A stretch of 64,000 bases of DNA, from the IMG/VR virus record IMGVR_UViG_3300029288_000153, positions 10,002-74,001 of that record; one strand, 5' to 3'. How positions within the stretch are numbered: the stretch's first letter is position 1; each line of letters opens with the position of its first letter. Origin of the DNA: a virus (lineage: Duplodnaviria; Caudoviricetes). The translations under genes were made by a program, and so were the position numbers. This document shows, piece by piece, positions 28,315 to 62,279 of this stretch. The notes under the pieces are model-generated. The model did no database searches and had not been told where the DNA came from. It worked only from the letters and a program-made list of their open reading frames with translations.

Positions 28315-29094
28315 ATGCGTCTGATTTCCGCACCAGCCACGGTCCTACATGCCCCGTTCACTACCTTTGGGGCGTCGGTGCCGGAAGACGGTAACTGCGT
28401 TTCACATGTGACGTTTCCTGGTGGCTCTATCTACGATAGTAAAGGGAACATGTGGACGCAGATAGGGGCCGTGCCTCAGGTAGCAACCTCTCAGCTGTAT
28501 CCGTTGGGTTTTGGGGCTGCTAGTAGGTCCGGGGCGGGGCCATTTACTTCGAGTGTTAACTATTTTCAGCTCGACCCTTTGGGGACCGGTACCGATGTGC
28601 TAGATTTTGCTGGTGACTTTTTGGGGGTGGCGGTGTTTCGGCCTACCGCTGTGCCAACCGGTGTTCTGGTTTCGAACGGGCTATATCAAGTAGATGGTTA
28701 TTACCTGCAGTTTTCGGGGTTGACCTTAAGCTTGGTGCAGAGTCAATCCGGCGAGGCTGATTTGCAGTCGGTGGGGGGCTGTGATGCCGACGCTATCAAC
28801 GTGGTGTGTTTTGGGCGGGTAGGGGCGAATAATATAATTAAACTCAATCTTAATGGTCTTATCTCGGGTGTTGGGAAAACTATTACCCCAGCAACCACCC
28901 GGCCTGCTCGTATTGGTGTATATGGAGATGGTGGATCGGCTACTTCTAGCACCGTCTACGAGCTGTATTTTACCACTACGACACCTACCGATGCTCTCTG
29001 TATTAATATTGTCAATCATGTATTTCAGCAGCAGGGGACTATGGGCGAGGCGTTGATTGTTGCTAGGGCCATATGTGGGAGCTACGAGATATGA
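28315..29094 (+). CDS. LamG/concanavalin-like beta-sandwich virion protein
   Basis: G/S/T-rich beta pattern, FLGVAVFRP, INVVCFGR, ARIGVYG. Confidence 0.55.
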   Translation: MRLISAPATVLHAPFTTFGASVPEDGNCVSHVTFPGGSIYDSKGNMWTQIGAVPQVATSQLYPLGFGAASRSGAGPFTSSVNYFQLDPLGTGTDVLDFAGDFLGVAVFRPTAVPTGVLVSNGLYQVDGYYLQFSGLTLSLVQSQSGEADLQSVGGCDADAINVVCFGRVGANNIIKLNLNGLISGVGKTITPATTRPARIGVYGDGGSATSSTVYELYFTTTTPTDALCINIVNHVFQQQGTMGEALIVARAICGSYEI

Positions 29095-44849: not shown

Positions 44850-45242
44850 CTACATAAATCTAGGGTACGTCCAGACGAGCTTGTCGGCGCCTTGAGGTGT
44901 CATTGGCGCGTATTGGCTTAAGTTGCTGATCATGTATTGAACAGCCACCGGATTAGCGGAGTGTAGGATGAGTTTACGGGGCCACATCAATAACCCATCC
45001 CTCTCCTGCGCAGTGATTAGTCGCTTTATTATTTCCCGCCCCTCGTTTTCGAGCCCAGGTACTCCGAGGTCGTTGTCGAGCGAGCAGGTGTCGACGTTGT
45101 AAGTGCACAGTAGCTCCCAGCACTCATCTACCGTCTTAACGCTCCAGCATTCCTTCACCGTCTTAGGATCATAGAACCCTTTTGGGGGCGTACGTTCGTC
45201 GTCCAGGTAGACGGCTATGAGATGTGTCCTGTACGTAGTCAT
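44850..45242 (-). CDS. cyclic-phosphate-processing receiver-like domain protein
   Basis: VYLDDER.PP, SLDNDLG, LHSANPV. Confidence 0.75.
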   Translation of the reverse strand: MTTYRTHLIAVYLDDERTPPKGFYDPKTVKECWSVKTVDECWELLCTYNVDTCSLDNDLGVPGLENEGREIIKRLITAQERDGLLMWPRKLILHSANPVAVQYMISNLSQYAPMTPQGADKLVWTYPRFM

Positions 45243-45898
45243 GGTTGGCTAAAGGCGAGAGCCCTGGTGGTTTTTGTGATTATCACCTTTTCTATGTTTT
45301 GTACAGTGGATCTACTTACCCCGTATTTCGTAGATAGGATCCCAAGATCGGTCGGATTATAAGACAGCAGACGACCGTACACTACCTCTCGACACAGGTT
45401 GGCGTCATATCTACTACGATGCCCCTTAGTCAATCGATCTATCACTCCGCATAAGGTACGGCGCAAGTGGGCGGCTCGATCCTGTTTGATTGCCGCATCT
45501 TCGGGGGTGTCTTCGGGGGACGTCGTAGACTCAAAATAGGATCTAGCTCCGTCGCTGCTCGTGTCGTCTATCGATACGTCGGCCTGGGCTTTTGTTCGTA
45601 CATTGCGTACCACGCAGGAGGAGCCGGCGCATCGGTATCGCTGGATGTAGGTGCGTACCCACTGAGCCGCGTAAAAGCGGAACTGCAGCCCTTTGGCGGG
45701 ATTAAAGTTTGGAATAACATCCCTAATGATCGTCATTCTGCCCACTTGAGCCAGATCCTCTCGTTCACTGGATGGGCACTTGGTTTTGGCTACTATGGCG
45801 GCGATATCTCGCTCGCAGTACTTGATCAGCGCTTCGACGGCTCGTTTGTTGCCTGCCTTGGCTGCGCAGGCGAGGCGGTTTTGGTCGTTGGGGGTCAT
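45239..45898 (-). CDS. second sigma70-family factor (regions 2 and 4)
   Basis: AKAGNKRAVEALI, EREDLAQVG, FNPAKGLQFRFYAAQWVR, KYGVSRSTVQNIE. Confidence 0.8.
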   Translation of the reverse strand: MTPNDQNRLACAAKAGNKRAVEALIKYCERDIAAIVAKTKCPSSEREDLAQVGRMTIIRDVIPNFNPAKGLQFRFYAAQWVRTYIQRYRCAGSSCVVRNVRTKAQADVSIDDTSSDGARSYFESTTSPEDTPEDAAIKQDRAAHLRRTLCGVIDRLTKGHRSRYDANLCREVVYGRLLSYNPTDLGILSTKYGVSRSTVQNIEKVIITKTTRALAFSQP

Positions 45899-45908
45899 GG
45901 TTGGTCCT

Positions 45909-47060
45909 TTATTCGGGCTGCCGTATACGCAGCCCTACGGGGAAACGAGGGATGCCGCGTGCGCTTAGATTTTGATATTGCACCGTCAACATCTTACCGA
46001 CTACTAGGCTCGGGGTCAAGAGGAATATTTTAAGATCCTCCATGTTACCTTTTAGTTTGACGCTGAACCGGTCCTTTGCGCCGGTCTCGCAGATAAACAC
46101 GGCCTTGTCGGCCATCGTCCCTCTACCCGCTTCCACCCCCACTACTCTGTATTCAGAGTCTTGCATCTCCTTGACTTTCTGCAGATTGTAGCTACGTTTG
46201 TGTTCGTACCCCCCTTGGCTGTTGCGAATCATACATCCTTCGTATCCTTTACTTAAGGATTCCTGGAAAAATTCTAGTAGTTGGTCTTCGTCGTGTACCA
46301 AAAATGTCGGCGCCAGTAAAACCACAGAACCGCTGGCGGGGAGGTGATGTTTCAGATATTCCGACCGCTCGGCGAACGAACACGGCTGTATGACGTCGTA
46401 TATATGATAGTGGATCATCTCCGCGTCGGGTTGGTTGGGGTGATCCTTACGAATCAAAGACGTTATTTTTTCAAAATCGGCGCGGAGCTGATGGTTGTAG
46501 CCCTCGCCATCGAGGAAATGTTCGCCGACGGGGAATAGTCGCTCGCAGGCTCGTTGGATGTGAACTAGCGAGTGGATTGGCTTGCGGGTGCGACTCCACA
46601 GTGTGCACTGTCCGTCTTTAATATGGGCGATAATTCGTAGTCCGTCGTATTTGTATTGCACAAACGCAGGGTAGGTGATCTTAGCTGCGTGGTCGCGGTA
46701 TTTATGGGCTAGCATGGGGTCAGCTCCGCCTTTGATGAGCGCGGAGCGTTCGCCGGCCAAAGCGGCCTCGCGGGTCAATACGTATTTCTTGTTTTTCTGT
46801 TGCTTGGTCCAACGAGCCTCTGCCTCAAAGGCAGCTTGTTGTTGGGGGGTGGTTTCGTTTTTTCTGCCGATATTCTTCCCATCAGCAATGATATCGGTAG
46901 TGCGTTGTGTCGCCCCACCCTCCTGGCCCCAGGAGGTAATGATCGAGGTATCGTCGGTGGCGATATTCCATACGATAATCGCCCCGGTGTCGGAAAGTTT
47001 GTAGAGGGTAGGTAGGTTCATTGTTGATCTGTGTGTCGTTTGAGGGGTTAAATACAGCAA
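45909..47060 (-). CDS. ATP-dependent DNA ligase with N-terminal WGR-like region
   Basis: QYKYDGLR, LDGEG, YHIYD, EGCMIR, YEHKRS..LQKVK, PRFPV. Confidence 0.9.
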   Translation of the reverse strand: MLYLTPQTTHRSTMNLPTLYKLSDTGAIIVWNIATDDTSIITSWGQEGGATQRTTDIIADGKNIGRKNETTPQQQAAFEAEARWTKQQKNKKYVLTREAALAGERSALIKGGADPMLAHKYRDHAAKITYPAFVQYKYDGLRIIAHIKDGQCTLWSRTRKPIHSLVHIQRACERLFPVGEHFLDGEGYNHQLRADFEKITSLIRKDHPNQPDAEMIHYHIYDVIQPCSFAERSEYLKHHLPASGSVVLLAPTFLVHDEDQLLEFFQESLSKGYEGCMIRNSQGGYEHKRSYNLQKVKEMQDSEYRVVGVEAGRGTMADKAVFICETGAKDRFSVKLKGNMEDLKIFLLTPSLVVGKMLTVQYQNLSARGIPRFPVGLRIRQPE

Positions 47061-47069
47061 TTATATCTG

Positions 47070-47582
47070 CTAGGCCTGTTTGGTAAAGAATCGAACTGCC
47101 GCCGCCACCGCATCGGCGGGTAATATCAGCTCGCTCAAGTCAGCGCCGCAATCTTGGCAGGTGGTGTAGTGTACTACGTCTCCGATCTTAAAGTAGTCGC
47201 TATGTGAACAATATTCCGGGTCGTTGTCGATCGACCATTCGGATCCGAGTTGTCGATCAATCGACAACATACCTATTTTTTCGGAGTGTCGGCGGGCGTA
47301 CCCCATCCCCGTCGATTCGCCTCGATCTGTGTAGAAGGCCCGGAATCCTCCGACTTGGTGAAATATCTCAGCGGTACGGAACCCCGCCTCGATGCCGGCG
47401 GTGCGTTGGGTGGGGTCGGTGTCGTCTAGGGCTCCAGGGTAAAATCCGTGCGACGCGTACGGTACTTCGCCGCGCTGCAGGCAGTCCAGGATACAGGCGT
47501 GTAGGTAGGCGATATTACGGCGATAATGGGCGGGGTTCCTCCCTGCGTACGGGCTTTCGACTATCACAGCTCTGTGGTCCAT
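47070..47582 (-). CDS. DUF4406-like (nucleoside deoxyribosyltransferase-fold) protein
   Basis: VIVESPYAG..RGEVPYASH..LDD..QRTAGIEAG; AGGAG RBS before ATG 47582. Confidence 0.65.
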   Translation of the reverse strand: MDHRAVIVESPYAGRNPAHYRRNIAYLHACILDCLQRGEVPYASHGFYPGALDDTDPTQRTAGIEAGFRTAEIFHQVGGFRAFYTDRGESTGMGYARRHSEKIGMLSIDRQLGSEWSIDNDPEYCSHSDYFKIGDVVHYTTCQDCGADLSELILPADAVAAAVRFFTKQA

Positions 47583-47646
47583 AAGGCTCCTTAGGTTTCG
47601 ATACAACGATTACAGGCGACCATACTATTACGTATCGTCGTGTGGT

Positions 47647-47675
47647 AGAATACCATACCCCATCGGAGATGTCAA
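47647..47675 (-). promoter_or_regulatory. sigma70-type promoter TTGACA-17-TATTCT; a second, TTGATA-16-TACAAT, at 47699-47726
   Basis: Hexamers read directly; they drive the 43.8-47.6 kb island. Confidence 0.75.
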
Positions 47676-50660: not shown

Positions 50661-51074
50661 ATGACCAAGCAGCCATTAATGTGGTTGGGTCACCCCGTTC
50701 GCGACTCCGAGCATATCAACTCACTGGAGCTTAATGCGGCCATCAATCAATATCACCACGGGATGAGTAGGGCCGATGCGGAAGCTCGGGTGAAGGACGA
50801 GGATCGTCGTGATAGGCATCTTAGGGCGGCAGCCCACCACTTCGAAGGTCTTCGCGCAGCCAATGCGGTTGGGTCCGAAGATGACGCCAAGCGGCATCAT
50901 GAAATGTACTCGATGCACCTACGAGTTTTAGGTCTAGAACCAAACGGACCGGTGCCCATTGAGATACAGCGCTATCGAGACGCCGAGACGCATCGCCGCG
51001 CCTATGCGTATAAAGGGCACTCCGACGATCAATTGCTGGCGGATGGCGCCAAAAAGAATGTTGGAGACAGGTAA
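50661..51074 (+). CDS. hypothetical His-rich helical protein
   Basis: 137 aa, operonic. Confidence 0.6.
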   Translation: MTKQPLMWLGHPVRDSEHINSLELNAAINQYHHGMSRADAEARVKDEDRRDRHLRAAAHHFEGLRAANAVGSEDDAKRHHEMYSMHLRVLGLEPNGPVPIEIQRYRDAETHRRAYAYKGHSDDQLLADGAKKNVGDR

Positions 51075-52552
51075 TGCCACAATTAACTATCAGTGCTGTT
51101 TCGAATATCTCAACGGAGATCGAGCGTCAATTACAGCACGATCACCCCGAAGAGGCAGCGCGGACCAGCCAAGGTATTTCGGCTGCCAATATGGTGGTGG
51201 AGAGTTGGGCGCTGCAGAGTCACGGTAAAATTATCTCGCAAGATGGAGCTAGTTTTACGATCGAAATCCCCGCCGCCTATCTCGAAGAGTTGGCGGAAAT
51301 CATAGAGCGCATTGAGGGTGTTAGTGGTAGTGAATATGCGGTAGGGGTAGGAGCGGATGCCGGCGAGGCTATTGTGGCTCGACGGGTCGCCGAGCAGCGC
51401 GGGGGGTCTCGAAATATCGTGCTATATACGCCAGATATTCACAGCGAAATCGAGGACGACATAAAGGATTCCGAGTCCGACATATTCGATGGTGAAATGA
51501 ATAAGGCGGAGGAGCAGAGACGCCCCGGCGAGGCCACCCAGGTGGTTAGGGGCGAGGTATCGCCGCTACACACGCAACCCTCCCCTCCGCCTAGTCCGTC
51601 GATCAGCGCCGACCCCCACGCCCCTCCGTCAGGTGATCGGCAGTCAGCTCCGGAACCGTCTGAACAGGATCTGGTTGGGGCCATTGGGCAAGTATTAAGT
51701 CAATTCAAACAACAGGTTCCGTTTTTTGAGCAGCAAGTCAAGTCAGCGAATCGACCAGCCTACGATGCTGTGATGGGGTTGGTCCAAGGGTTGATTGCTC
51801 TAGCTCAACAGTTAGTAGGTAATCCAGCAACGAACGAGGATGTAGGTGAGGCGGTACAAAAAGCTGAGGACGATATGCGTAGGTCTACTGGACGGCGTAA
51901 TCATCGATGTAGTCGGTGTGGCAACTTGGTGTCTGTGTTGAAGGACGGTCGAGTGGAAGCACATCTACACAGGCAGCTACGATCTAGCACCTTGTCGCCG
52001 TGTGACGGCGAAGCGGCGCTGCCCGTTAAAAAATCTGAGACCTCTAAGGTGGAGATCGATCCATCGAAGCCGCTGCCTGATTCCGATGCATTACGTAAGC
52101 TATTCGATTGGGCCCGGGATAGTATTATGCAACGCGGTGAGGAGGATTGGGGGGCCGATTTGTTCCGGGAGTTCCCTACAGGATTCGAGCACGAGCGTAG
52201 TGAACATCCTCATTTAGACGACCACGACACGGCGCTTACTACCATCCAACACCTCAAAGAGGATCCTAATTACTACACCAAGATTCAACACATGGAGGAG
52301 TCGGGGGTGTTGGGAAAAGAAGAGGTTGGGCGACATAGAGTGGTGCTACCTGTCGGTAGTCGCGGCGTGGGGGCCAAGGGGAATAGTATTAAGGTTCTTG
52401 AGCCAACTACAGGAAAAACCGCTTGGCACCAGATGGGTGCTGGCTGCAAACTGAGCGCCGACGGCCACCCTATTAGCACCAAAGTGACGGAGTGTGGTAG
52501 CGCCGACACGCCTGAACACCGAGCTGCTGCGGCTGGGTTAGTTGGTAGGTAG
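51074..52552 (+). CDS. modular protein: degenerate GGDEF/palm-like N-terminus, zinc ribbon, DUF5661-like domain
   Basis: SQGI..WA..HGKIISQDG..IP..AVGVG..EA..A..Y; CSRC; FEHERSEH..TIQHLKEDPNYYTKI. Confidence 0.55.
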   Translation: MPQLTISAVSNISTEIERQLQHDHPEEAARTSQGISAANMVVESWALQSHGKIISQDGASFTIEIPAAYLEELAEIIERIEGVSGSEYAVGVGADAGEAIVARRVAEQRGGSRNIVLYTPDIHSEIEDDIKDSESDIFDGEMNKAEEQRRPGEATQVVRGEVSPLHTQPSPPPSPSISADPHAPPSGDRQSAPEPSEQDLVGAIGQVLSQFKQQVPFFEQQVKSANRPAYDAVMGLVQGLIALAQQLVGNPATNEDVGEAVQKAEDDMRRSTGRRNHRCSRCGNLVSVLKDGRVEAHLHRQLRSSTLSPCDGEAALPVKKSETSKVEIDPSKPLPDSDALRKLFDWARDSIMQRGEEDWGADLFREFPTGFEHERSEHPHLDDHDTALTTIQHLKEDPNYYTKIQHMEESGVLGKEEVGRHRVVLPVGSRGVGAKGNSIKVLEPTTGKTAWHQMGAGCKLSADGHPISTKVTECGSADTPEHRAAAAGLVGR

Positions 52553-52756
52553 TTGAGGGTCGGATAATTCTAGATCGTATCTGATCGACGGAGTTGGTAG
52601 GTTTCGCTTCACCTCGCCCTGATTATCGAACCATCCCTGTGCGTCTACCCAGGTGACTCCGTCGTCTCCTTGGTGTGCATCTGGATGCCGATCGGGTTTG
52701 AGGCAGGTCTGCAGGTATATGCCGTCGTTGAAACGATTATAGCAGCGCTTGGTCAT
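52538..52756 (-). CDS. small hypothetical protein
   Basis: 72 aa downstream of the RNA ligase on the same strand. Confidence 0.45.
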   Translation of the reverse strand: MTKRCYNRFNDGIYLQTCLKPDRHPDAHQGDDGVTWVDAQGWFDNQGEVKRNLPTPSIRYDLELSDPQLPTN

Positions 52757-52856
52757 TTTTGTCGCCCCAATATTCGACTAAGGCTAGTGTGCCGATCGAT
52801 GACAGGTCCATATTAGATCTCGTAAGTTATGAGACAAGGCAGAGAAAAATCCGTTA

Positions 52857-53972
52857 TCAATGCAACTCCTTGGTGGCGCCTTTGCGGAGCTTGTATGCCT
52901 GGGAGACGTATTTCAGCACCACCCTCCCGAACCCCGTTGAGTAGCGGGTCGTCGCTGGCTTGACCACCACTCCTTCTCGGATTTGTTGTGAGGCCAGCTG
53001 GCTCTGCCCTTCCACTAATGACCGTAACATGTCTGCATCAAAAGGGCCATCGTTTAATACCGGCACGGTATCGAGTCCAAGCTGTTGGCAAATTTGGACT
53101 ACGTTATCCCATCCTAGCCAGGTGCCGGTATCCATGTCGTAGATGTCGAATACGCGAAACCACACCTGACCAGGAGATGCCTGGTAGGTAAGGTCTTGTA
53201 CGTTTCCGAAGATTTCGCCGTAAATGGCCAGCCCTTTGGCGATCGCAGCACGTAATCGATCTTGTAGGGCGTATTGACGAGCTATCAACCAGTATAGGTT
53301 TTCTTTGCGTACTGGAGTGGCCACCGGTCGCCGGGTTAGCGTACGCCACATAGAAAATAGCCGCCAGCGCCATGATGGCGGGGCCAGGGGGTCGCGCCAG
53401 AAACAATTATGCGATCCGACGTAGAATTTCTTGTCGACGTACGCAAAGCGCGCCTGAGTTCCATGTAGCTTTTCGGTGACGATCACGCGCTCTAGCGGTA
53501 TCATTAGTTCTGGGTGTGTATTATATGGCTCGATGTCATAGCGCGGGATGCATGTGGGGGTTTTTTCTTGTTGGGATGTCCCTTTAAGGGATCTATTCTT
53601 GGTTTTGGTGCCACCCCATCCTTCCGGCACTTCGTCTTCGTATTTGACGATGCCTAGGATTTTAGATACGTCTTTCTGTGGGTATGTTTGGTGAAGGGGC
53701 AGGATGGAGATGGGGAGTAGAAGCCCTTCGGAATACACGCCTCGTAGCCGACGAGCCTTGATTCGTCGGTGGTCGCCGAGGAATTCGGTGCCCGGCACCG
53801 AGGCGGGCACCACTGACTCCACGGGCACATAGATGGCTAGATCCCCGGACCGAAAATCTCCGGTGCGAATAACTACATTCTCGCCGTACACCGTCACTAC
53901 GCTGAGGTTGTCGGCGTTGGGGTGTGGTAACACTTCCCCGACAGAGATAATTGGGCAGGCGAATTTACTCAT
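52857..53972 (-). CDS. ATP-dependent RNA ligase (DRB0094/Rnl2-like) with N-terminal OB-like domain
   Basis: PHPNADNL..GDLAIYVP; VTEKLHGT; YGEIFG; FDI; REGVVVKP; LKYVS..Y. Confidence 0.88.
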   Translation of the reverse strand: MSKFACPIISVGEVLPHPNADNLSVVTVYGENVVIRTGDFRSGDLAIYVPVESVVPASVPGTEFLGDHRRIKARRLRGVYSEGLLLPISILPLHQTYPQKDVSKILGIVKYEDEVPEGWGGTKTKNRSLKGTSQQEKTPTCIPRYDIEPYNTHPELMIPLERVIVTEKLHGTQARFAYVDKKFYVGSHNCFWRDPLAPPSWRWRLFSMWRTLTRRPVATPVRKENLYWLIARQYALQDRLRAAIAKGLAIYGEIFGNVQDLTYQASPGQVWFRVFDIYDMDTGTWLGWDNVVQICQQLGLDTVPVLNDGPFDADMLRSLVEGQSQLASQQIREGVVVKPATTRYSTGFGRVVLKYVSQAYKLRKGATKELH

Positions 53973-54041
53973 TGGTTTCCTTGTATCTCAATTGATTAGA
54001 TCATGAGCGAATATGATACTCTGACTATAACACATGTTCTG

Positions 54042-54440
54042 CTACACGCGGGGGGCGGGGGCGGTTGGTGGACCCGTTTTGTGGACCCGTACATAGATCC
54101 ACCTAATCTTGGCTCCTGGGGGGAGCGATATCGCACCTTCGGGTAGTCGCGGTCCATTGTACTGCGCGACTAAGATCTCGTCACCTGCTAGCAGCGACGT
54201 GGTCACCCTACGCACCTCGATAGGCTGATCGAGCATGGTGGTCAGGAGCTGCGCCGTGTCTGCGTGGCCTACACATGATGTGAACCCACCGTCGATCGAC
54301 CAATTATGAAGCATCAAGCAAGCGTCTGTGATGCTGCCCACCTGTCGGCACTCTAGCCACCGAGTAACTCCGCATGTCGATAGGTCGTCCAGCATCCCCA
54401 GGCTGATGGCGTTTGCGATATACCGCATTTTATTCTCCAT
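54042..54440 (-). CDS. acrIII-1: AcrIII-1 family (DUF1874) anti-CRISPR ring nuclease
   Basis: YIANAISLGML..SCVGHADTAQLL..RRV..L..GD.ILVAQ..PRLPEG, matching SIRV1 gp29 YLANAFSINML..SIGHDST..NRV..LYVVQ..RLEEG; the catalytic GH is retained. Confidence 0.88.
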   Translation of the reverse strand: MENKMRYIANAISLGMLDDLSTCGVTRWLECRQVGSITDACLMLHNWSIDGGFTSCVGHADTAQLLTTMLDQPIEVRRVTTSLLAGDEILVAQYNGPRLPEGAISLPPGAKIRWIYVRVHKTGPPTAPAPRV

Positions 54441-54461
54441 TTCGTTTGAGTCAGTTTATCC

Positions 54462-54519
54462 GGCCCACGGGAATCTCCGATCTGTCAGCGACTCCTGTAG
54501 GCGCCCAAAGGTGAGGGCG
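54462..54519 (-). repeat. structured intergenic element, copy F (P4 degenerate)
   Basis: Core CGCCTACAGGA at 54493-54503. Confidence 0.85.
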
Positions 54520-54527
54520 ATCACGCT

Positions 54528-54944
54528 CTACTGCGCAATGGTCCAGGTCTTGTCACCTACGACGATGTTGTGGACCGACCATATAACATCGCCAGCTCTA
54601 GAAAATCCGTCTGATCCATGGACGATCCATCGGCCCGGACCTACCCTATACCCCTTGGGCTCCCTCTCTCCCCACGTCGCGGTATTGCCGCTCCCGCGTC
54701 GCGCCCATCCCTTTCCCCGACTAAGTAATTCGTACCGGTGGTGCGGCAGTACGATTGTAGATCCGCGACTCAGTCTCGGGGCACCCGCAAGACGAGCAAA
54801 TATCTCGTCACTTACGATCGGGTGTGCGATCGTAAGTGACTCCGTCCGTGCCGTGCTGATGTCGTGGATCCCGAGTCGGGCGATTCTGCCCTCTACGGTC
54901 TCGGTTTCGGTCGTCATGATTTCATCTCCCTGTGTCGTCGTCAT
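54528..54944 (-). CDS. hypothetical protein (array cassette)
   Basis: Leaderless ATG 54944 or RBS-led ATG 54917. Confidence 0.7.
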   Translation of the reverse strand: MTTTQGDEIMTTETETVEGRIARLGIHDISTARTESLTIAHPIVSDEIFARLAGAPRLSRGSTIVLPHHRYELLSRGKGWARRGSGNTATWGEREPKGYRVGPGRWIVHGSDGFSRAGDVIWSVHNIVVGDKTWTIAQ

Positions 54945-54950
54945 ATATAA

Positions 54951-54979
54951 AGTCTACCATATATAAACCACAGTGTCAA
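54951..54979 (-). promoter_or_regulatory. sigma70 promoter TTGACA-17-TAGACT with extended -10
   Basis: Hexamers read directly. Confidence 0.85.
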
Positions 54980-54997
54980 GTGGCTTTAAAGATTAAT

Positions 54998-55045
54998 GTC
55001 TTACCGACGCCATTGGTAGATCCTGTAGGCGCCCACTCAACGGGT
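54998..55045 (-). repeat. structured intergenic element, copy E (3-prime truncated)
   Basis: Core at 55021-55031. Confidence 0.75.
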
Positions 55046-55317
55046 GGAGTTACGGGGGGCAACTAGTTCGTCCCACGACCGGAGCACGGTCTCGGGTACG
55101 ATCGCTGATCCCATCTGGGAATCGACCCACTCCCCGTCCGAGCCCCCCCGTGACAGCGCGCGGCTTCGAGGCGCGCTACCCGAGTCTGCTCCTTGCGCGC
55201 CAAATGCTCTAGTGCCCGACTGCGCGCCCAATCTCGCACGTCCGCCACCGGGATGGTGTCCGTCGGATCACTGCCGAGCAGTCCTTCCGCCAGTAAATGT
55301 GCCTCATGGTCATTGCT
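55037..55317 (-). pseudogene. possible degraded or frameshifted small gene (G7 tract at 55143-55149)
   Basis: No clean start. Two partial frames (55063-55317 and 55037-55231) are each protein-like on one side of the tract. Confidence 0.3.
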
Positions 55318-55698
55318 TCACCCATCCTTTTTGGCATGCATCACTGCAATTTGCCGAGAGTCCGAATCGCTGAAGTCAGCATCCTGCAGGTCAGCGCCAC
55401 GGAGGTCGGCGTCCCGCAGGTTGGACTCGGTGAAGTCCACGCCACACAGGCTCGCGCAGCTGAAGTCGGCGTCCCGCAGGTCAGCGCCGCGGAGGTCCAC
55501 GCCACGCAGGCTTGCATGACGGAGGTCAGCGACCCGCAGGTCAGTGTAGCTGAGGTCAGCGTAGCTGAAGTCCAGGCCCCGCAGGTCAGCGCCGCGGAGG
55601 CACTCACCTGACCAATTCAGTGGTTGTCCCGTGTCGTGATTCTCCAGCCAGAGCTGATGTGCATCGTACTCGATTTGATGTTTCACTGAGAGTTTCAT
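55318..55698 (-). CDS. pentapeptide repeat protein
   Basis: Repeats such as LRGAD LRGLD FSYAD LSYTD LRVAD; GGAGG RBS. Confidence 0.9.
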   Translation of the reverse strand: MKLSVKHQIEYDAHQLWLENHDTGQPLNWSGECLRGADLRGLDFSYADLSYTDLRVADLRHASLRGVDLRGADLRDADFSCASLCGVDFTESNLRDADLRGADLQDADFSDSDSRQIAVMHAKKDG

Positions 55699-55713
55699 GT
55701 GATGCCCTCCTGT

Positions 55714-55790
55714 TGGGCCCTATTGCCCACAGGGTGTGTCGACTCACCGTCGACACGTCCTGTAGGCGCCTTACTCCTGCTCCGCGCCCG
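55714..55790 (-). repeat. structured intergenic element, copy D
   Basis: Core at 55758-55768. Confidence 0.9.
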
Positions 55791-55792
55791 GA

Positions 55793-56191
55793 TTAGGTGA
55801 CAATCGATGGCGGAGGCAATCCTCGGCGATAGTCGCCTAGGTAGTTATACTCCGAGTCGTAAGCGCACCACATTGGGGCGCCCAAGAAGGAATAATCTCC
55901 CGCCCATCGCTCCCACGCAGCGGCCCGGACAGACTCCCGCGTCAGGGCGTCTGCGGGTCGGACGCGACCATGCAGACACTCCATGCCCGCTGCGCCACAT
56001 ATGGCGCATCGTTTATACTGCGCGTGACACTCCGCAGTATGCCCTGGCGCCACTGGCCGATATGCGTTTCGCGGGTCTCCTGTACACCCTGGACACCTGC
56101 CCGCGAACGTGAGCCAGCGGCGATGGGCCGGCTCCGCCGCCTGTAGCTCTGCCCCCAACGCGTCGTCGATCGGGTGTGCGTATTCCACCAT
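55793..56191 (-). CDS. hypothetical Cys-rich protein (array cassette)
   Basis: CPGC, HxxxC, CAIC, ECLH; GAGGAG RBS. Confidence 0.7.
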   Translation of the reverse strand: MVEYAHPIDDALGAELQAAEPAHRRWLTFAGRCPGCTGDPRNAYRPVAPGHTAECHAQYKRCAICGAAGMECLHGRVRPADALTRESVRAAAWERWAGDYSFLGAPMWCAYDSEYNYLGDYRRGLPPPSIVT

Positions 56192-56204
56192 ATTGTCTCC
56201 TCAT

Positions 56205-56272
56205 CGGGCTCCACTGCCCGCGGGGAGGCTCGATCGTCGAGCCGTCCCGTAGGCGGGCGCGCGAGGCGCCCG
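56205..56272 (-). repeat. structured intergenic element, copy C (compensatory variant)
   Basis: Core CGCCTACGGGA at 56245-56255. Confidence 0.85.
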
Positions 56273-56285
56273 GGGGATCAGTCTC

Positions 56286-56528
56286 CTATCGGGCTCTCGT
56301 AGCCTGGATAGCCTGCATGATCTCCATAGATCCTCCATCTGCGTGGAGAAATGCTAGGCGATAGAGCGCCTCTTTTCCACCATCCTGGAGGATGATCACG
56401 TAGTTTTTGCGTTTCACGGCGTCATGGTCCCGCCAATCTGGCGTGCGCCCCTCAAGCCGCTGCACATCCTCGATGCGCGCGAGCCGTTTGATTAAGACCG
56501 TGCCCCCGGACCGTTCGTAGATCGCCAT
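56286..56528 (-). CDS. hypothetical protein (array cassette)
   Basis: GAGGAG RBS, 80 aa. Confidence 0.7.
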   Translation of the reverse strand: MAIYERSGGTVLIKRLARIEDVQRLEGRTPDWRDHDAVKRKNYVIILQDGGKEALYRLAFLHADGGSMEIMQAIQATRAR

Positions 56529-56542
56529 ATTGTGCTCCTCGT

Positions 56543-56614
56543 CGGGCCCTTTTGCCCGCAGGAATCTGTCACCGTCAGTGACCGACTCCTGTAGGCGCCC
56601 CTCCGCAGAGGGGC
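56543..56614 (-). repeat. structured intergenic element, copy B
   Basis: Core at 56587-56597. Confidence 0.9.
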
Positions 56615-56620
56615 GGGGGG

Positions 56621-56896
56621 CTAGTCCGCGACCGGTCTACCGCCGGGTGTGATGATGCCAGCGGCACGGAGATCGGAGAGGACGGCGGCGGAGAGATCAC
56701 GGTCGAAGGGGGACCCAAAATTGTCAGCCGTGAACCAATGCCGGCGAAGCGCAGGACAATCATCGTCATCACAACCGTAACCGCATGAGCATCCGGGATC
56801 GGTGTAGTCTACCAACTCGGCTCCGTGTTGTTGTGCGATCAGAGCGGCCCGCCTGCCAAGATGGCCACGCCCTGAACCAAACAGAAATTCTGACAT
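56621..56896 (-). CDS. hypothetical protein with CxCxxxC..C..HW cluster (array cassette)
   Basis: AAAGGA RBS, 91 aa. Confidence 0.7.
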   Translation of the reverse strand: MSEFLFGSGRGHLGRRAALIAQQHGAELVDYTDPGCSCGYGCDDDDCPALRRHWFTADNFGSPFDRDLSAAVLSDLRAAGIITPGGRPVAD

Positions 56897-56909
56897 AATG
56901 TCCTTTCAT

Positions 56910-56980
56910 CGGGCCCTTTTGCCCGCAGGGTGTGTCGACTCACCGTCAACACGTCCTGTAGGCGCCCCTCTGGAGAGGGG
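56910..56980 (-). repeat. structured intergenic element, copy A
   Basis: Core at 56954-56964. Confidence 0.9.
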
Positions 56981-56985
56981 TACAA

Positions 56986-57189
56986 TCAGTTTTTGGCGGC
57001 GGCTCGCTTCATAGTGTAGCGAACCAGCAAGGGGATGTCAAGACAGAAGATCGATAGGATCCATATATAGCCGATATATCTCAAGGCGGTTACGTCAGTG
57101 AATGCGACCAACAAGCCCGCCAGGGCAAGCTCGACTCCGACGATAATCAGATGCGACAACCTAGGAATACTGTTTAGTTTTGGAAGCAT
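56986..57189 (-). CDS. small two-TM membrane protein (first gene of the array)
   Basis: Two hydrophobic helices. Confidence 0.6.
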   Translation of the reverse strand: MLPKLNSIPRLSHLIIVGVELALAGLLVAFTDVTALRYIGYIWILSIFCLDIPLLVRYTMKRAAAKN

Positions 57190-57228
57190 GGAGGGGTCCT
57201 ATTAGAGGTGAGTGTGTCGTACAGGCAA

Positions 57229-57257
57229 ACTATAACACAGCCGGTCTAGGATGTCAA
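57229..57257 (-). promoter_or_regulatory. sigma70 promoter TTGACA-17-TATAGT (extended -10) driving the array
   Basis: Hexamers read directly. Confidence 0.85.
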
Positions 57258-57273
57258 AGGGTAATCTATTAAT

Positions 57274-58149
57274 ATGTCTGACATCATCTGCCAACTAGAT
57301 TTCGGCGAAGTCAAGAGCATCGCCAAGGACCTCGTAGCACTAGATGCCGAGGTACGCAAGAGGGCGGGGGATTTGGCCTCGCAGGCTCACCTACATTTAC
57401 TAGAGCTAGCTCAACAAAACCTACATACCACCCGACAGACCTACGTGGACGCTCTACGGTCGGTTGAGGAGGTGTCCCCTGGGGTGTTCGTGATCGTGTT
57501 AGATAAGTCCGCGCTGTGGATCGAAGACGGCATGGAAACCCATGAAATGATTGACGATTTACTTAAGAATAACGCCAAAACATCTAAGTCCGGGTCGCGC
57601 TATAAGGTGATTCCGTTTGATATTGGTCGGGGCGGGGCCAGCCAGTCACCCGGGCAAAACGCATTAAACCAAGCCTTGCGCGCAGAACTAAAGAAACGGG
57701 GGATAAAATACAAAGGAATCGAGCGCAACCCCGATGGGTCCCCCAAAATAGGCCTGCTACATAGTTTCAATATTTCCCGCACTCCGATTCGTCCGGCTGG
57801 TACCGCCGGTAAGCCTGGGTGGGGAAAAGGGGCAGTTGGAGACGTGATGGCAGGACCGGCGAACCCAGGAGAGTTGTCTGGAATTCCGCTGTTGCACGGC
57901 GTGCGCATCTATCAACATGCCCTACAAAAACCGACTGGCGAGCCTGAATTCAATAAACAAGGGCACCAAAAGGCGACGCGCAACATCACCACCTTTCGTG
58001 TCGTGTCGTCGACCCAGAAGGGTACGGGCAAGTGGGTGCATCCTGGACTGACACCTCGACTGTTTTTTGAAAAAACAGAAACCTGGGTCGAGAACCAATG
58101 GGAACAGCACGTGCTTCCTGATATTTTATCTCGTCTGACCCGAGATTAG
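57274..58149 (+). CDS. putative neck/tail-completion protein (HK97 gp10-like)
   Basis: TRQTYVDAL..LDKSALWIEDG..RYKVIPF..FRVVS..WVHPG; TAATCTA at 57262-57268. Confidence 0.55.
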   Translation: MSDIICQLDFGEVKSIAKDLVALDAEVRKRAGDLASQAHLHLLELAQQNLHTTRQTYVDALRSVEEVSPGVFVIVLDKSALWIEDGMETHEMIDDLLKNNAKTSKSGSRYKVIPFDIGRGGASQSPGQNALNQALRAELKKRGIKYKGIERNPDGSPKIGLLHSFNISRTPIRPAGTAGKPGWGKGAVGDVMAGPANPGELSGIPLLHGVRIYQHALQKPTGEPEFNKQGHQKATRNITTFRVVSSTQKGTGKWVHPGLTPRLFFEKTETWVENQWEQHVLPDILSRLTRD

Positions 58150-58352
58150 TCTCGCTCAACCGGTAAGAAGCGCACATAGAACCGCTGTCGTGACTGCGAC
58201 AATAACCAGATAAGGTACCCGTCGATCGTTATGGGGTCGCTTGATTCGGAAATTATTTCGGCGGTATGGCAGAGACGATATCTCGATTTCGGGATAAGGA
58301 AGTATTGGGAACATAGAGGTCTCTTGTGTGGTTAATGAACATCCTCGTCTAG

Positions 58353-58380
58353 ACTATAACATACCTAACTAGAATGTCAA
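58353..58380 (-). promoter_or_regulatory. sigma70-type promoter TTGACA-16-TATAGT
   Basis: Hexamers read directly; a possible ~52-aa membrane ORF lies downstream, near 58160-58320. Confidence 0.6.
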
Positions 58381-58401
58381 GCGTAATCTAGCTATCAGCA
58401 C

Positions 58402-59760
58402 ATGGAAACGTCTATATCGCCGCTACAAGCCCCCGACTCTGCCGGGTCTTCTGTCGATCCAGGGAGTCGCGATGTCGATGCGTCGACCGCTGCCCAGCAG
58501 ATTATTGCGTCGGCCGTGGATGCCTATTACGGTATCTTACTCGATTTGCGGAAGCGTGAGACCCAGCATCTAATAAGCAAAAATCGACTGCGTAGAGACA
58601 TTTCGGCTCAGCAAGATACCACTCCATCTAACCCCCACTCAGGAAATATTGGAGTTGATAGCGCAACACGGAAGGCGGAGAAACCAATGAAACTCCATGA
58701 GCTGCTGAAGTCCCAGGGTACCAAGCTACCGACGACCAAAAAGGCCGAGTTCCCTACTACCAATCGGTTTAGCCGGAAATTGGCGGGTATCCGAGAGCAG
58801 GGGCAGAAGGACAGCACTTCGTCGCCGCAGAATGTCACCGGTATGATCTCTAAGTCGATCTTTAAGCGTATGGCCGACATGAGCAAGCAGGAGTTTTTTA
58901 TTGACCTAAAGACCCCCTCTGACTCTCAGAAGAGACTTAAAGAGGTTCACCCCGTCCGGGAGGCCAAGGTGCCGTTTGGTGATTTTACGTCCAAGGCGAT
59001 TGAGTGCTCGGCTTGTGGAGGTAAGATTACAGAGAACCAGCCTAAGCCGATCAAGAGCCAGAGCGCAGACGAAAACAGTATAGTAGAGGGCAGTGTTGGA
59101 GTTACCGACAGCAAAAACGACCTCATCGCCAAGGCGGCTCTCTTGTATCACGCCAAGAAGGCGCAAGAGAAATACGACAAGGCCAAGCCGGGCTCGGTGG
59201 AGTATAGTTTATTTGAAGAGAGCGCCCCCAAGGTATTACATCCCGACGACAAAAAAAATCAATCTCCAAAAAAGAAAATCGCCAAGGCGGCTGCGGCGAT
59301 GTCGGCCCCTAAGGCCCCTACGGCCCCCGGGATGGGAAGCCCTAAGTTGAGTGGTGGGGCCCCGACCAAACCTCCGACCTCCACCGCCACGGCCAACACC
59401 ACCGCCAACACGATAGGGAAGGCAGAGGAATCCCCCGAGGCCTCAAAGTGTAAGCAATGTGGACGCGTAGGCAAGAAGATAGTAACCAAAGCTATCCTCC
59501 CTTTTTCCGAGCAAAAAGGCGCCCAGGCGGCGGCGATGGGGGTCCCTCAGGGTTCTCAATCTGAGCAGCGAGCTGTCCCGCATGATCCTAGTGATTACGA
59601 CCCTGACCTGTATCGACCTACCGGCCCCGTCAAGTCTGGGCTGCTCACCCAAGAGGAGTTCAACCAAGCTGGGGCTACCATGCCTGGGCTAGGGGTCACA
59701 CCTCGGCCTGCTCAGCCAATTCGCAGCCCGGCTGTCCATCGCAATGTTCGGTATAAGTAA
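58402..59760 (+). CDS. low-complexity putative internal head/scaffold-like protein with multiple [LIV]xK[SA] motifs
   Basis: LLKS, ISKS, IAKA (x2), IGKA, VTKA; CSAC, CKQC; TAATCTA at 58384-58390. Confidence 0.6.
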   Translation: METSISPLQAPDSAGSSVDPGSRDVDASTAAQQIIASAVDAYYGILLDLRKRETQHLISKNRLRRDISAQQDTTPSNPHSGNIGVDSATRKAEKPMKLHELLKSQGTKLPTTKKAEFPTTNRFSRKLAGIREQGQKDSTSSPQNVTGMISKSIFKRMADMSKQEFFIDLKTPSDSQKRLKEVHPVREAKVPFGDFTSKAIECSACGGKITENQPKPIKSQSADENSIVEGSVGVTDSKNDLIAKAALLYHAKKAQEKYDKAKPGSVEYSLFEESAPKVLHPDDKKNQSPKKKIAKAAAAMSAPKAPTAPGMGSPKLSGGAPTKPPTSTATANTTANTIGKAEESPEASKCKQCGRVGKKIVTKAILPFSEQKGAQAAAMGVPQGSQSEQRAVPHDPSDYDPDLYRPTGPVKSGLLTQEEFNQAGATMPGLGVTPRPAQPIRSPAVHRNVRYK

Positions 59761-59843: not shown

Positions 59844-62279
59844 ATGACAATCCAATATGTCGATCAGGACGGAACACTCGTCATCCCCGGTGGATACGCT
59901 AAATGGAGTGTATCGCCATCTAATAACGGGCTGGCGACTCGGGGCGTGGTGTGTCTGGTTGGTGAGGCCGCAATGGGCAACTCCTACTCTGAAGAGGAGA
60001 GCGGACTAGGTGGTGCGTCGTTTGGTCCCGGGCAGTTCAAGTCCGTGGCCCTCCAGTACGGGTCCGGTCCTTTGGTAGATGCGTTTCGGGTGGCCTGCAA
60101 CCCCTCTAGGGATCCTGCTATTCGCGGAGCCCCCACCAGGATCATTTGCGTAAAGACCAATACTGGCACAAAAGCTACCGGTACGTTTACGGGCGCCTAT
60201 GCGGTGGCTAGGGCCAAGTCGGCGGGTGCCTGGGGCAATCTAATCAGCTGTCAGGTTACTGCCGCTGTCGCCGAGGTGGTTCCGTCGATTACGTCTGGAT
60301 TTATCTATTTGGATGACACTGAATCAATCTCCTTGGCGGCCAATGGTGGTACCGCGGTGGTGTTGGATGTGACCGGCATCACCCCGGCGGCGTTTGTAAC
60401 CGACAACGCAGCCGCGCTCGCGGCGGAAGATATTGCCCTTACGGGCGGAGTTAAGAGCCAGCCAGCACTTGGGCTGGTCATGGTGACAGCTGGGGTGGTG
60501 GCTGTCGGCAATGTGATTACTATTTCATTGACCGGAGGCACCTGGTCGTCTCAGCCAGCTACTGGCGCGATCTTGGAGATTGCCGACACGTCACCGATTA
60601 CTGGTGGTAGTAATCAGAACTCGGGGCAGTACATCGTGACTTCGTCTAGCACCACCGGATTGGTGGCCACTAAGATTATCGACCTGGACGGCGCCACCCT
60701 GACCCCTCCCGTAACGATCGCTCCTGGGGCGACTGCTGACGTGGGCCTTCTCGATGCCTATTCGCAGCTAGTGTTCACCAATGCTGCCGCCGATGTGCCT
60801 GGCCTAGGTCGAACATTGACGCTATACCGAGATGGTACTTCGGCTAGTGCCCATTTGTTCCAGTCTGCCACGCCGGTTACCGCCAGTCAATTTATTACTT
60901 CCACCACCGAGGCGGCTAGGAATATTCTGGTCAACCGCAGCGTGGATTCGCTGTCTGAGTCTTTCCGAGTCGGCGGCAATATTGTTATGTCGATTGGGCG
61001 GGTAGGGGTGTCGGCCATTCCGGTTGTCGTAGGCGCGGTTGATATCAACTTCAACAGCTCGGAATTTGTCATCGTCAAGACCGACCTCGCCACCTTAGGT
61101 GACCTGGCGGCCAGGATCAACGCGCAGCCCAACTGGTACGCGACCGTTCCCGCCGCATTCCGATCTTTGCCTCTTAGTGTTTTGGATCAGGGAACATTTG
61201 ATGCTCGTCAAAATGGCGTCGTATCTACCGGCCCGGCACGAGTTAAGAAAGACGCCTACGACGTAGCCGCCAAGCTGGCGACCTCGCGGGGTATCGAGTT
61301 AGTCACCGCCCCCACGGCGGGCATGCCGGCGGTACAGGCTACGTTTTTCTTGGCGGGCGGCGCAAAAGGGGCAACCACTGACCTAGCCGTTGCGGCTGCC
61401 TTGGAAGCCGCTGGACAGACTCGTTGTAACTTTGTTGTGCCTTTGTTTGCTAGGGATGCGACTAGCGATATTGCTGATGGACTCACTGACGCGGCGTCCA
61501 CATATACGATCGATGGTATCAACTCTTATGTGTCCGAGCACGTCACCGCCTATAGCAAATTTAAAAAGAGGCGACCACGTCAAGGTTTCTGCTCCAAAAA
61601 GACCACCTTTGCCTTAGCCCAAACCGCTGCTCAGACTTTGGCTAATCCTCGGTTGTTGATGGGGTTCCAGGATGTCGTAGCTCTCGGCGCCAATGGGACT
61701 CAGTGGTTCCAGCCTTGGATGGGGTCGGTGGTGGCGGCGGGCATGCAGGCGGCCGGATTTTACCAGCCAGTTTTCAACAAGGCGATTGCGATCACCGGCG
61801 TGACTCAGGCGGCTGGAGATTTTGATTGCCAAGATGACGATCAGGTCGAAGTTGCCCTGTCGGCTGGCCTGAGCGTAATCCGCGAACGTGATGGAGGTGG
61901 GTTTGCTTTTGTCTCTGACCAGACCACCTACACGGTCGACGGTAATTTCGTCTATAATTCTGTACAGGCACAGTATATCAGCGACCTGATCTCCCAGACG
62001 GTCGCTCAGAGGATGGAGTTAGCTTTTGTGGGGCGAAGCTTCGCTGACGTGTCAGCGTCGGCCGCCTTGTCATACCTGAAAGGCATCATGGCCGATCTGA
62101 AGCGACTCAAACTCATCACAAGCAGTGACGATGCGGTGGAAGGGTACCGCAATGCGGTCATCACCATCTCGCCGCCGGCTATGAGGGTCAGTGCCGAGGT
62201 GAAGATCGCGTCGGGGTTGTACTTCTGTGTCGTAGATTTTTTGATGTCGGAAACCACGCAGGTTGCGTCGCAAGGGTAA
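59844..62279 (+). CDS. contractile tail sheath protein
   Basis: IPGGY..GVVCLVGEA..G..YGSGPLVDA; C-terminal VQAQYISD..FVG..S..L..L..ITSS..GY..VI; precedes the tube gene. Confidence 0.88.
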   Translation: MTIQYVDQDGTLVIPGGYAKWSVSPSNNGLATRGVVCLVGEAAMGNSYSEEESGLGGASFGPGQFKSVALQYGSGPLVDAFRVACNPSRDPAIRGAPTRIICVKTNTGTKATGTFTGAYAVARAKSAGAWGNLISCQVTAAVAEVVPSITSGFIYLDDTESISLAANGGTAVVLDVTGITPAAFVTDNAAALAAEDIALTGGVKSQPALGLVMVTAGVVAVGNVITISLTGGTWSSQPATGAILEIADTSPITGGSNQNSGQYIVTSSSTTGLVATKIIDLDGATLTPPVTIAPGATADVGLLDAYSQLVFTNAAADVPGLGRTLTLYRDGTSASAHLFQSATPVTASQFITSTTEAARNILVNRSVDSLSESFRVGGNIVMSIGRVGVSAIPVVVGAVDINFNSSEFVIVKTDLATLGDLAARINAQPNWYATVPAAFRSLPLSVLDQGTFDARQNGVVSTGPARVKKDAYDVAAKLATSRGIELVTAPTAGMPAVQATFFLAGGAKGATTDLAVAAALEAAGQTRCNFVVPLFARDATSDIADGLTDAASTYTIDGINSYVSEHVTAYSKFKKRRPRQGFCSKKTTFALAQTAAQTLANPRLLMGFQDVVALGANGTQWFQPWMGSVVAAGMQAAGFYQPVFNKAIAITGVTQAAGDFDCQDDDQVEVALSAGLSVIRERDGGGFAFVSDQTTYTVDGNFVYNSVQAQYISDLISQTVAQRMELAFVGRSFADVSASAALSYLKGIMADLKRLKLITSSDDAVEGYRNAVITISPPAMRVSAEVKIASGLYFCVVDFLMSETTQVASQG

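Follow-up and report, generated by a model that had tools for sequence, protein, structure and literature searches.

A reverse-oriented accessory island with an AcrIII-1-type gene and a repeated structured RNA element in an uncultured Mx1-like phage

Introduction

Here, we describe a block of small genes in the genome of an uncultured phage (Caudoviricetes), analyzed in a stretch of 64,000 nucleotides, hereafter the window, that covers positions 10,002 to 74,001 of the virus record IMGVR_UViG_3300029288_000153. The whole IMG/VR record comprises 74 kb and is estimated to be 45% complete. The block, which we call the island, is ~4.7 kb in length and lies between 52.5 and 57.3 kb of the window, and all of its convincing open reading frames (ORFs) are on the minus strand. 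In our interpretation, to which we give a probability of about 0.6, this is a horizontally assembled, early-expressed accessory island that was inserted in reverse and parts two late virion genes whose counterparts in Myxococcus phage Mx1 lie side by side.

The island encodes a credible anti-CRISPR ring nuclease of the AcrIII-1 (DUF1874) type, and the placement of this AcrIII-1 gene beside an RNA ligase gene is the first Mx1-like example to be documented, in an uncultured phage. Most of its genes are separated by copies of a ~90-nt element, which is a previously undescribed structured RNA family, rare and tied to cassette-like gene turnover. Below, we detail the insertion and its promoters, the ring nuclease and the ligase, the RNA element and the remaining small genes, and we weigh the alternative explanations of the block.

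Insertion into the late region

The genes surrounding the island are plus-strand virion genes, including a phrog_1004 member and the tail sheath gene (59844-62279). They bear out the original prediction, made from the DNA letters without database searches, that the block runs antisense inside the late region; the eight ORFs listed at that stage are all present on the minus strand as described. Mx1 is the only cultured relative of the window phage, with a tail sheath that is 39% identical over its full length. The Mx1 homologs of the late genes on either side of the island, at 51074-52552 and 57274-58149, abut on the same strand, and because they are directly adjacent, the 4.7-kb block represents an insertion relative to Mx1.

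In the element-rich half of the island, at 55.0-56.7 kb, the GC content is 0.56-0.70, compared with 0.525 genome-wide, which suggests horizontal acquisition. The GC content of the block drops from ~0.66 to ~0.5 across a short stretch (55021-55050) that holds a truncated copy of the element. Given the raised GC content and its end at the truncated copy, the 55.0-56.7 kb segment may have come from a phage with a higher GC content, through an exchange at the element.

Promoters and operon layout

The island had been proposed to be headed by one strong promoter. This promoter, P1 (57229-57257, minus strand), is confirmed, with the sequence TTGACA-17-TATAGT, an extended -10 TG upstream and a match at 11 of 12 positions. 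It does not head the whole series, however: a second consensus promoter, P2 (54951-54979, minus strand; TTGACA-17-TAGACT with TG), lies directly upstream of the ORF listed as 138 aa, so that the island consists of at least two operons, not one. A weaker promoter-like site (52765-52736, minus strand) is found ahead of a possible 72-aa ORF (52538-52756, minus strand), which was called as a gene in one source only and is of uncertain coding status.

Sites of the form TTGACA-N16-18-TAnnnT number six in the window, against a chance expectation of 1.15. All of them are on the minus strand, and five head minus-strand gene blocks, one of which (44850-47606) encodes a sigma-70-family factor together with a DNA ligase and a cREC domain. 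Since a promoter-headed block encodes a phage sigma factor, the six-site set is plausibly an early class read by host RNA polymerase. Transcription of the island by the host enzyme would then start at a minimum of two sites, P1 and P2, which are consensus promoters of the extended -10 type. Operon 1, from P1, would carry a small membrane protein, a 91-aa protein with a Cys motif, an 80-aa orphan, a 132-aa Cys/His protein and an acidic pentapeptide-repeat protein, with a decayed cassette at its end. Operon 2, from P2, would carry a conserved 129-aa basic protein, the AcrIII-1 ring nuclease and a DRB0094-type RNA ligase.

AcrIII-1 ring nuclease and RNA ligase

The ring nuclease gene (54042-54428, minus strand) was assigned through PF08960 and alignment to solved family members. 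Its ORF was listed as 54042-54440 (132 aa), and the likeliest start is at 54428. The protein scores 33.3 bits against PF08960 (STIV_B116-like; cut-off 26, E = 5.3e-8), matches phrog_5063 (E = 3.6e-12), aligns over most of its length to AFV3-109, STIV B116 and SIRV1 gp29, and retains the GH and RLxEG motifs. Its VGH aligns with the IGH of the SIRV1, STIV and AFV3 proteins, so that the catalytic histidine is retained; in SIRV1 gp29 this catalytic residue is His47, which is absolutely conserved (10.1101/778746).

The closest match in a cultured phage is the DUF1874 protein of phage THSA-485A (36.8% identity, E = 1e-11), and the THSA-485A gene has been found experimentally to abolish type III immunity dependent on cyclic tetra-adenylate (cA4) (10.1101/778746). 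A single-protein locus search of IMG/VR found no close relatives of the island protein. The consensus host-type promoter P2 lies 0.5 kb upstream of the gene. Judged by family membership and conserved motifs, the protein is a credible anti-CRISPR ring nuclease, which by homology would destroy the cA4 alarm signal of type III CRISPR systems.

The neighboring gene (52857-53972, minus strand) encodes a predicted ATP-dependent RNA ligase of 371 aa, of the DRB0094 type with an oligonucleotide-binding (OB) domain that the family assignment places at the N-terminus. The protein scores 157.2 bits against the TIGR02306 equivalog (cut-off 151.15), contains the PF09414 RNA_ligase (E = 1e-33) and PF21189 OB (E = 1.6e-12) domains and matches phrog_968 (E = 5.6e-52), and the KxxG lysine motif (EKLHG) can be seen in its translation. 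RNA ligase 1 of T4 has been catalogued as an anti-defense protein that restores damaged molecules (10.1101/2025.06.06.658234). By analogy with that enzyme, which belongs to a different family, an anti-defense role of the island ligase is plausible: it would reseal RNA cut by defense nucleases, for which it would need end-healing enzymes encoded elsewhere. With a ring nuclease that by homology destroys the cA4 signal and a ligase that may reseal cut RNA, operon 2 could act as a counter-defense module.

A further minus-strand block of the window (44850-47675), headed by a promoter of the same type (47675-47647), encodes a DUF7768 protein, an ATP-dependent DNA ligase, the sigma-70-family factor mentioned above and a cREC_REC protein. 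The cREC_REC 'cyclic-phosphate processing receiver' domain (PF20274, E = 1e-18) is linked to RNA repair and could cooperate with the island RNA ligase.

An intercistronic structured RNA element

The original prediction had also pointed to palindromic sites between the genes. These are real, and can now be refined to a single ~90-nt element, present in five full copies and a truncated one, all on the minus strand. The full copies lie at 56892-56987 (covariance model score 81.1 bits, fold z-score -4.2), 56526-56620 (84.3 bits, z-score -4.0), 56186-56278 (67 bits, with an apical-stem variant that is also seen in loci L010, L027, L007 and L008), 55696-55791 (76.4 bits, z-score -4.3) and 54436-54526 (64.1 bits, with a diverged 3' part). 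The truncated copy (55021-55050), recognized by alignment, retains the first hairpin and the invariant GGCGCCTACAGGA and is broken inside the main hairpin. It follows the decayed cassette at the usual spacing and is itself followed by promoter P2. A covariance-model scan of the 74 kb found no copy outside the island, and an Rfam search of 52000-58600 gave no relevant match at E values up to 10.

Each copy spans the interval between a stop codon, which it follows immediately, and the ribosome-binding site of the next gene, where it ends. The element begins with a GC-rich hairpin immediately after the stop codon, continues with an irregular hairpin of 16-20 bp whose arms, GCCUACRGG and CCYGYGGGC, are almost invariant, and finishes with a small GGGC...GCCC hairpin by the ribosome-binding site, which competes with the base of the main stem. 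The main hairpin, of ~20 bp with an internal loop, is alike in all 11 copies that were aligned, and its apical stem varies in sequence and length yet keeps its pairing.

Standard base pairs occupy 83.8% of the cells in the 11-copy alignment, compared with 40-60% when the partners are slid; compensatory changes occur in 7 pairs, compared with 3.7 in shuffled alignments; and the covariation score is 0.231, compared with 0.141 for shuffles, a value reached by 0 of 500. This alignment was fitted to the covariance model and therefore leans toward structure, and the independent folds of single sequences agree with it, with z-scores from -2.8 to -4.3 for single copies. The element folds best as the sense-strand RNA, and it is on the sense strand that conserved G-U pairs are found. 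These pairs, together with the fixed orientation of the copies, favor a role at the RNA level.

Occurrence of the element in other phages

A pattern search combined with the covariance model located the element in four further IMG/VR phages of ~38 kb, with a GC content of 0.57-0.63 and an estimated completeness of 56-96%, and in a few short metagenome contigs. A metagenome scan gave 77 pattern matches, and in seven of those loci there were ten places with a model E-value of at most 0.001; two of these loci are identical to contigs already counted among the ~38-kb phages (G001 and G004). In these other carriers, the element always sits between unrelated small genes in the same layout of stop codon, element, ribosome-binding site and ATG. 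It is absent from Mx1. A relaxed DNA pattern run over genome contigs returned only single chance matches in GC-rich genomes, and is uninformative.

Apart from the element itself, the island shares nothing with the four ~38-kb carriers, and none of its genes has a homolog in any element-bearing phage other than the window phage. Outside the island, only four ORFs of the record have weak counterparts in these carriers. Because no island gene is shared and there are only these four weak relatives elsewhere, a host factor is likelier to be the reader of the element than a phage-encoded one. The most likely role of the element would be that of a signal for mRNA processing, stabilization and translation start, read by such a host factor. 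In a second role, it would supply homology for the swapping in of gene cassettes, as may be expected from the same element flanking unrelated genes in unrelated phages.

Among the proteins that the window phage shares with element-bearing ~38-kb phages are the DUF7768 protein (window 47070-47606), which has a counterpart of 42% identity in phage G002, and a 259-aa protein (window 28315-29094), with a counterpart of 35% identity in phage G003. The ~38-kb carriers also have a second, different type of intercistronic hairpin, beginning CCCGGGCGATCTCCGGATCGCCC, in the same position between stop codon and ribosome-binding site (L002, 4430-4530; L007, 1448-1544; L008, 4478-4569; L202, ~440-540). From this second type, it would seem that structured intercistronic signals are in general use among these phages.

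Uncharacterized small genes

The proteins of 67, 91, 80, 132, 129 and 72 aa have no match in Pfam, PHROGs or NCBIfam. Sequence and profile searches against the PDB returned nothing meaningful for the 129-, 91-, 80- and 132-aa proteins, and a tblastn search of 50,697 phage records returned nothing for the 138-aa and 132-aa ORFs.

The ORF listed as 138 aa (54528-54944) most likely starts at its second ATG, at 54917, and thus encodes a basic protein of 129 aa (54528-54917, minus strand). This start has a GGGAG ribosome-binding site and agrees with the N-termini of the homologs. The protein belongs to a strongly conserved phage family, in which 34 proteins were matched (33 besides the query), with 43-69% identity to the query in alignment A4 and 20 invariant columns, many of them Arg, Trp or Gly. 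The AlphaFold2 (AF2) model, with a predicted local distance difference test score (pLDDT) of 95.9, has three N-terminal helices and a beta-sandwich. Foldseek found no match to it at E ≤ 0.001 in PDB or BFVD (best E about 0.1), and the best VIA-align hit (Z 5.4) is a generic match to an Ig-like sandwich. The homologs are found on phage or plasmid-like contigs near VapE-like, Rep_1, portal and methylase genes. A 212-aa ORF on the plus strand (54328-54966) is an antisense shadow of this gene, and its apparent homologs are the reverse strands of the 129-aa family.

The 91-aa protein (56621-56896, minus strand) has four Cys residues and an RHWF motif, and represents a second conserved phage family, with 15 proteins matched (14 besides the query) that are 45-65% identical to the query in alignment A6. 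Three of the Cys residues are invariant and the fourth is found in at least 90% of the members; the protein is probably metal-binding. For its AF2 model (pLDDT 86.7), no Foldseek hit reached E ≤ 0.001, the lowest E being 0.2, and VIA-align gave Z values of up to 5.4. Homologs are located in runs of small ORFs that adjoin SNF2 helicase or lysis genes.

The first gene of operon 1 (56986-57189, minus strand) encodes a 67-aa basic protein (isoelectric point (pI) 9.7) with two hydrophobic segments, which has been seen on 3 contigs and has one near-identical relative. The 80-aa ORF (56286-56528, minus strand) is an orphan, with no homolog found among 5.8 billion clusters. It is probably coding, as indicated by a GC content of 0.65/0.41/0.67 at codon positions 1/2/3 and by a GAGGAG ribosome-binding site upstream. 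A protein atlas suggestion that it is Tad2-like (TM 0.48) was rejected, given a model pLDDT of only 0.43 and no Pfam support. For the 132-aa Cys/His-rich protein (55793-56191, minus strand; 7 Cys), there are only two real homologs, P0056 (52% identical) and P0057, and the protein atlas gave only vague zinc-ribbon leads that were uninformative.

The pentapeptide-repeat protein (55318-55698, minus strand) is acidic (126 aa, pI 4.7), with tandem A(D/N)LXX repeats that match PF00805 in three stretches (E = 1.8e-24). It scores below the cut-off of every named NCBIfam subfamily, and an assignment to the gyrase-protecting Qnr/MfpA type was rejected at 23-36 bits against cut-offs of 240-500. We regard it as a short, acidic, generic family member, for which a role as a DNA mimic is possible but unsupported; our literature search found no report of pentapeptide-repeat proteins as phage anti-defense factors. 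Between its gene and P2 lies the decayed cassette (55063-55313, minus strand), with two short overlapping frames and a flat GC content by codon position (0.68/0.66/0.69).

Neighboring genes

The 492-aa late-region protein that borders the island (51074-52552, plus strand) has a weak N-terminal match, below the cut-off, to the minimal CRISPR polymerase (mCpol) domain (E = 3e-4), and its N-terminus also weakly matches DUF5661. Its Mx1 homolog is a protein of 468 aa (OR576727.2, 33963-35369). For the flanking 291-aa protein on the other side, a single-protein locus search of IMG/VR found no close relatives. Beyond the late gene at 57274-58149 is a one-gene insertion between two late genes (58156-58380, minus strand), which consists of a near-identical twin of P1 (58380-58353) and a 52-aa ORF with a C-terminal hydrophobic segment.

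Alternative explanations

It had been proposed that the whole block is a dedicated anti-defense island, in which most of the unknown 67-138-aa proteins would be new inhibitors of CRISPR, cyclic oligonucleotide-based antiphage signaling (CBASS), Thoeris and similar systems. Known anti-defense genes do cluster, and the block holds an AcrIII-1 gene and an RNA ligase gene behind promoters that look early, is inserted relative to Mx1, and encodes small proteins with no housekeeping family match, one of which, the pentapeptide protein, is acidic in the manner of DNA mimics. The AcrIII-1 part of the proposal stands and the ligase part is plausible, but the unknown ORFs match no characterized anti-defense protein by sequence. 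Structure prediction of the 129-aa and 91-aa proteins, followed by Foldseek, gave confident models that resemble no known fold or anti-defense protein. The homologs of these two proteins lie in ordinary early or replication neighborhoods that contain neither known anti-defense genes nor other island genes. No island gene was found together with another outside the window phage, and no homologs of island genes were found next to the acrIII-1 gene of THSA-485A, so that the label of candidate inhibitor comes from position only. In addition, the island includes an orphan ORF and a decayed cassette. The 129-aa and 91-aa families show unusually high conservation, which is easier to reconcile with enzymes, ligand-binding proteins or partners of conserved host machinery than with fast-evolving inhibitors that bind a defense protein. 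We therefore judge a dedicated anti-defense island to be somewhat unlikely, and treat the operon 1 proteins and the 129-aa protein as candidates only. At the other extreme, the block would be a generic early or 'moron' region whose DUF1874 protein has a function other than anti-CRISPR. There is precedent in SIRV2 gp37, which did not act as an anti-CRISPR in a native infection but inhibited a methyltransferase of the host (10.1101/2023.01.10.523387), and in the DUF1874 proteins that are found among cellular ring nucleases (10.1101/778746). The island protein, however, conserves the catalytic His, and its nearest relative in a cultured phage is the validated THSA-485A gene. With the gene placed behind a consensus host-type promoter, the objection from late timing would probably lose its force here. 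This explanation is distinctly unlikely in our view.

Two further explanations concern the repeats. They might act on DNA as regulator binding sites that control transcription of the block, as stoperators or the extended start-associated sequences (ESAS) of mycobacteriophages do. Their arms are indeed highly conserved in sequence, with an invariant 13-mer, and the ESAS of cluster K share the design of an inverted repeat around a spacer of variable length, placed ahead of the start of a non-structural gene; their describers read them as DNA-binding sites (PMC3203893). A DNA site, however, needs none of the covariation, length change and preserved pairing of the apical stem; the conserved G-U and A-C positions would be mismatched on the other strand; every copy is oriented as its gene; and no protein common to all carrier phages was found. 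DNA binding sites thus seem quite improbable. The suggestion of an integron-like cassette array fares still worse as a mechanism. The layout does recall integron arrays, with a promoter at one end and then a string of units, each made up of a gene and a repeat, whose cargo is unrelated. The repeat of the island is also found beside different, unrelated genes in phages that are themselves unrelated, and a truncated copy lies at the composition junction. The absence of an integrase, noted originally for the window, extends to the whole record, in which no match to the tyrosine recombinase family PF00589 was found in 74 kb, with positive controls, the record being ~45% complete. The attC core motifs R'' (RYYYAAC) and R' (GTTRRRY) each have only 1-3 occurrences on a given strand of 4.8 kb, and their positions do not coincide with the repeats. 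The repeat includes the translation signals of the next gene and has sense-strand G-U pairs, consistent with a fold that acts as sense RNA, and the four ~38-kb carriers share no island gene and have no common protein fit to be a recombinase. The cassette-like modularity is real and its resemblance to integrons is one of layout only; that the repeats are attC-type sites for a site-specific recombinase encoded elsewhere is very improbable indeed.

Several points weigh against our own interpretation of a horizontally assembled, early-expressed island. The host is assigned solely through the 39% sheath identity to Mx1, and the 'early' label is taken from the promoter consensus alone. To our knowledge, DRB0094-type ligases have no demonstrated anti-defense role. 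The 129-aa and 91-aa homologs are conserved (43-69% identity), unlike typical fast-evolving protein-binding inhibitors, and their neighborhoods are ordinary early or replication ones. Cleavage of the element by RNase III would follow by analogy, and a factor that recognizes a specific sequence would account for the strongly conserved hairpin arms no less well than RNase III. Moreover, in a native-system study, a late-expressed DUF1874 protein failed as an anti-CRISPR and had another role (10.1101/2023.01.10.523387).

Beyond the accessory island that we favor, we can offer a more speculative and, as a whole, doubtful proposal that joins the element and its genes. The island would consist of undescribed 'RNA-punctuated' mobile cassettes, in which each gene travels with its own folded signal for expression in any recipient operon (processing, stabilization and ribosome loading) and with homology for exchange among unrelated phages of the same host group, and the 129-aa and 91-aa families would be new counter-defense or host-manipulation factors. 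If this is true, the element could explain how shuffled small accessory genes stay expressible. Clustering with one known anti-defense gene is insufficient here to assign functions to its neighbors. The strongest case for functional screens can be made for the 129-aa and 91-aa families, which have confident models, no fold match and a defined genomic setting.

Comparison with known systems

Among known repeats, the element can be compared with the RNase III sites of T7, the promoter-early stem-loop (PeSL) repeats of T4-like phages and the start-associated sequences (SAS) and ESAS of cluster K, and is not a member of any of these classes. In T7, genes 1.0 and 1.1 are separated by R1.1, a hairpin of 60 nt that contains an internal loop (PMC6121014). 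The island and T7 both have structured RNAs of ~60-90 nt between consecutive genes of an operon with a strong host-type promoter, and in both the RNA includes an irregular, internally looped hairpin that spans some two helical turns and would stay on the 3' end of the upstream message. The two are unrelated in sequence, and cleavage of the island element is putative; the island element also differs in its extra flanking hairpins, its very conserved arms and its occurrence in unrelated phages.

PeSL are short conserved repeats that border small variable genes in plastic regions of T4-like phages, and have been proposed to be points of homologous exchange between otherwise unrelated sequences (PMC4122927). 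The likeness lies in regulatory repeats beside small variable genes and, in the island, in the truncated copy at the GC junction. Each PeSL unit has an early promoter and a terminator-like stem-loop, whereas the island has two or three promoters for the whole block, and its elements contain neither a promoter nor a U-tract, the only promoter-like sites being those at 57257 and 54979 and the weaker one at 52765.

The SAS of cluster K is a 13-bp motif, GGGATAGGAGCCC, found 3-7 bp upstream of the start codon (PMC3203893). Like the island element, SAS and ESAS are repeats in a single orientation, tied to the starts of non-structural genes, with a GGG...CCC motif near the ribosome-binding site and an upstream inverted repeat with a variable spacer. 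The sequences differ, the GGGC(N4-6)GCCC of the island lies about 12-20 nt upstream of the start with a separate ribosome-binding site, and covariation at the RNA level is seen in the island inverted repeat but not in the arms of the ESAS.

For the ring nuclease, the comparison is with the known AcrIII-1 proteins SIRV1 gp29, STIV B116 and THSA-485A, with which the island protein shares its Pfam family, the catalytic GH and the RLxEG loop motif. Unlike them, it has a Pro-rich C-terminal tail of ~25 residues and is encoded by a large Mx1-like myovirus.

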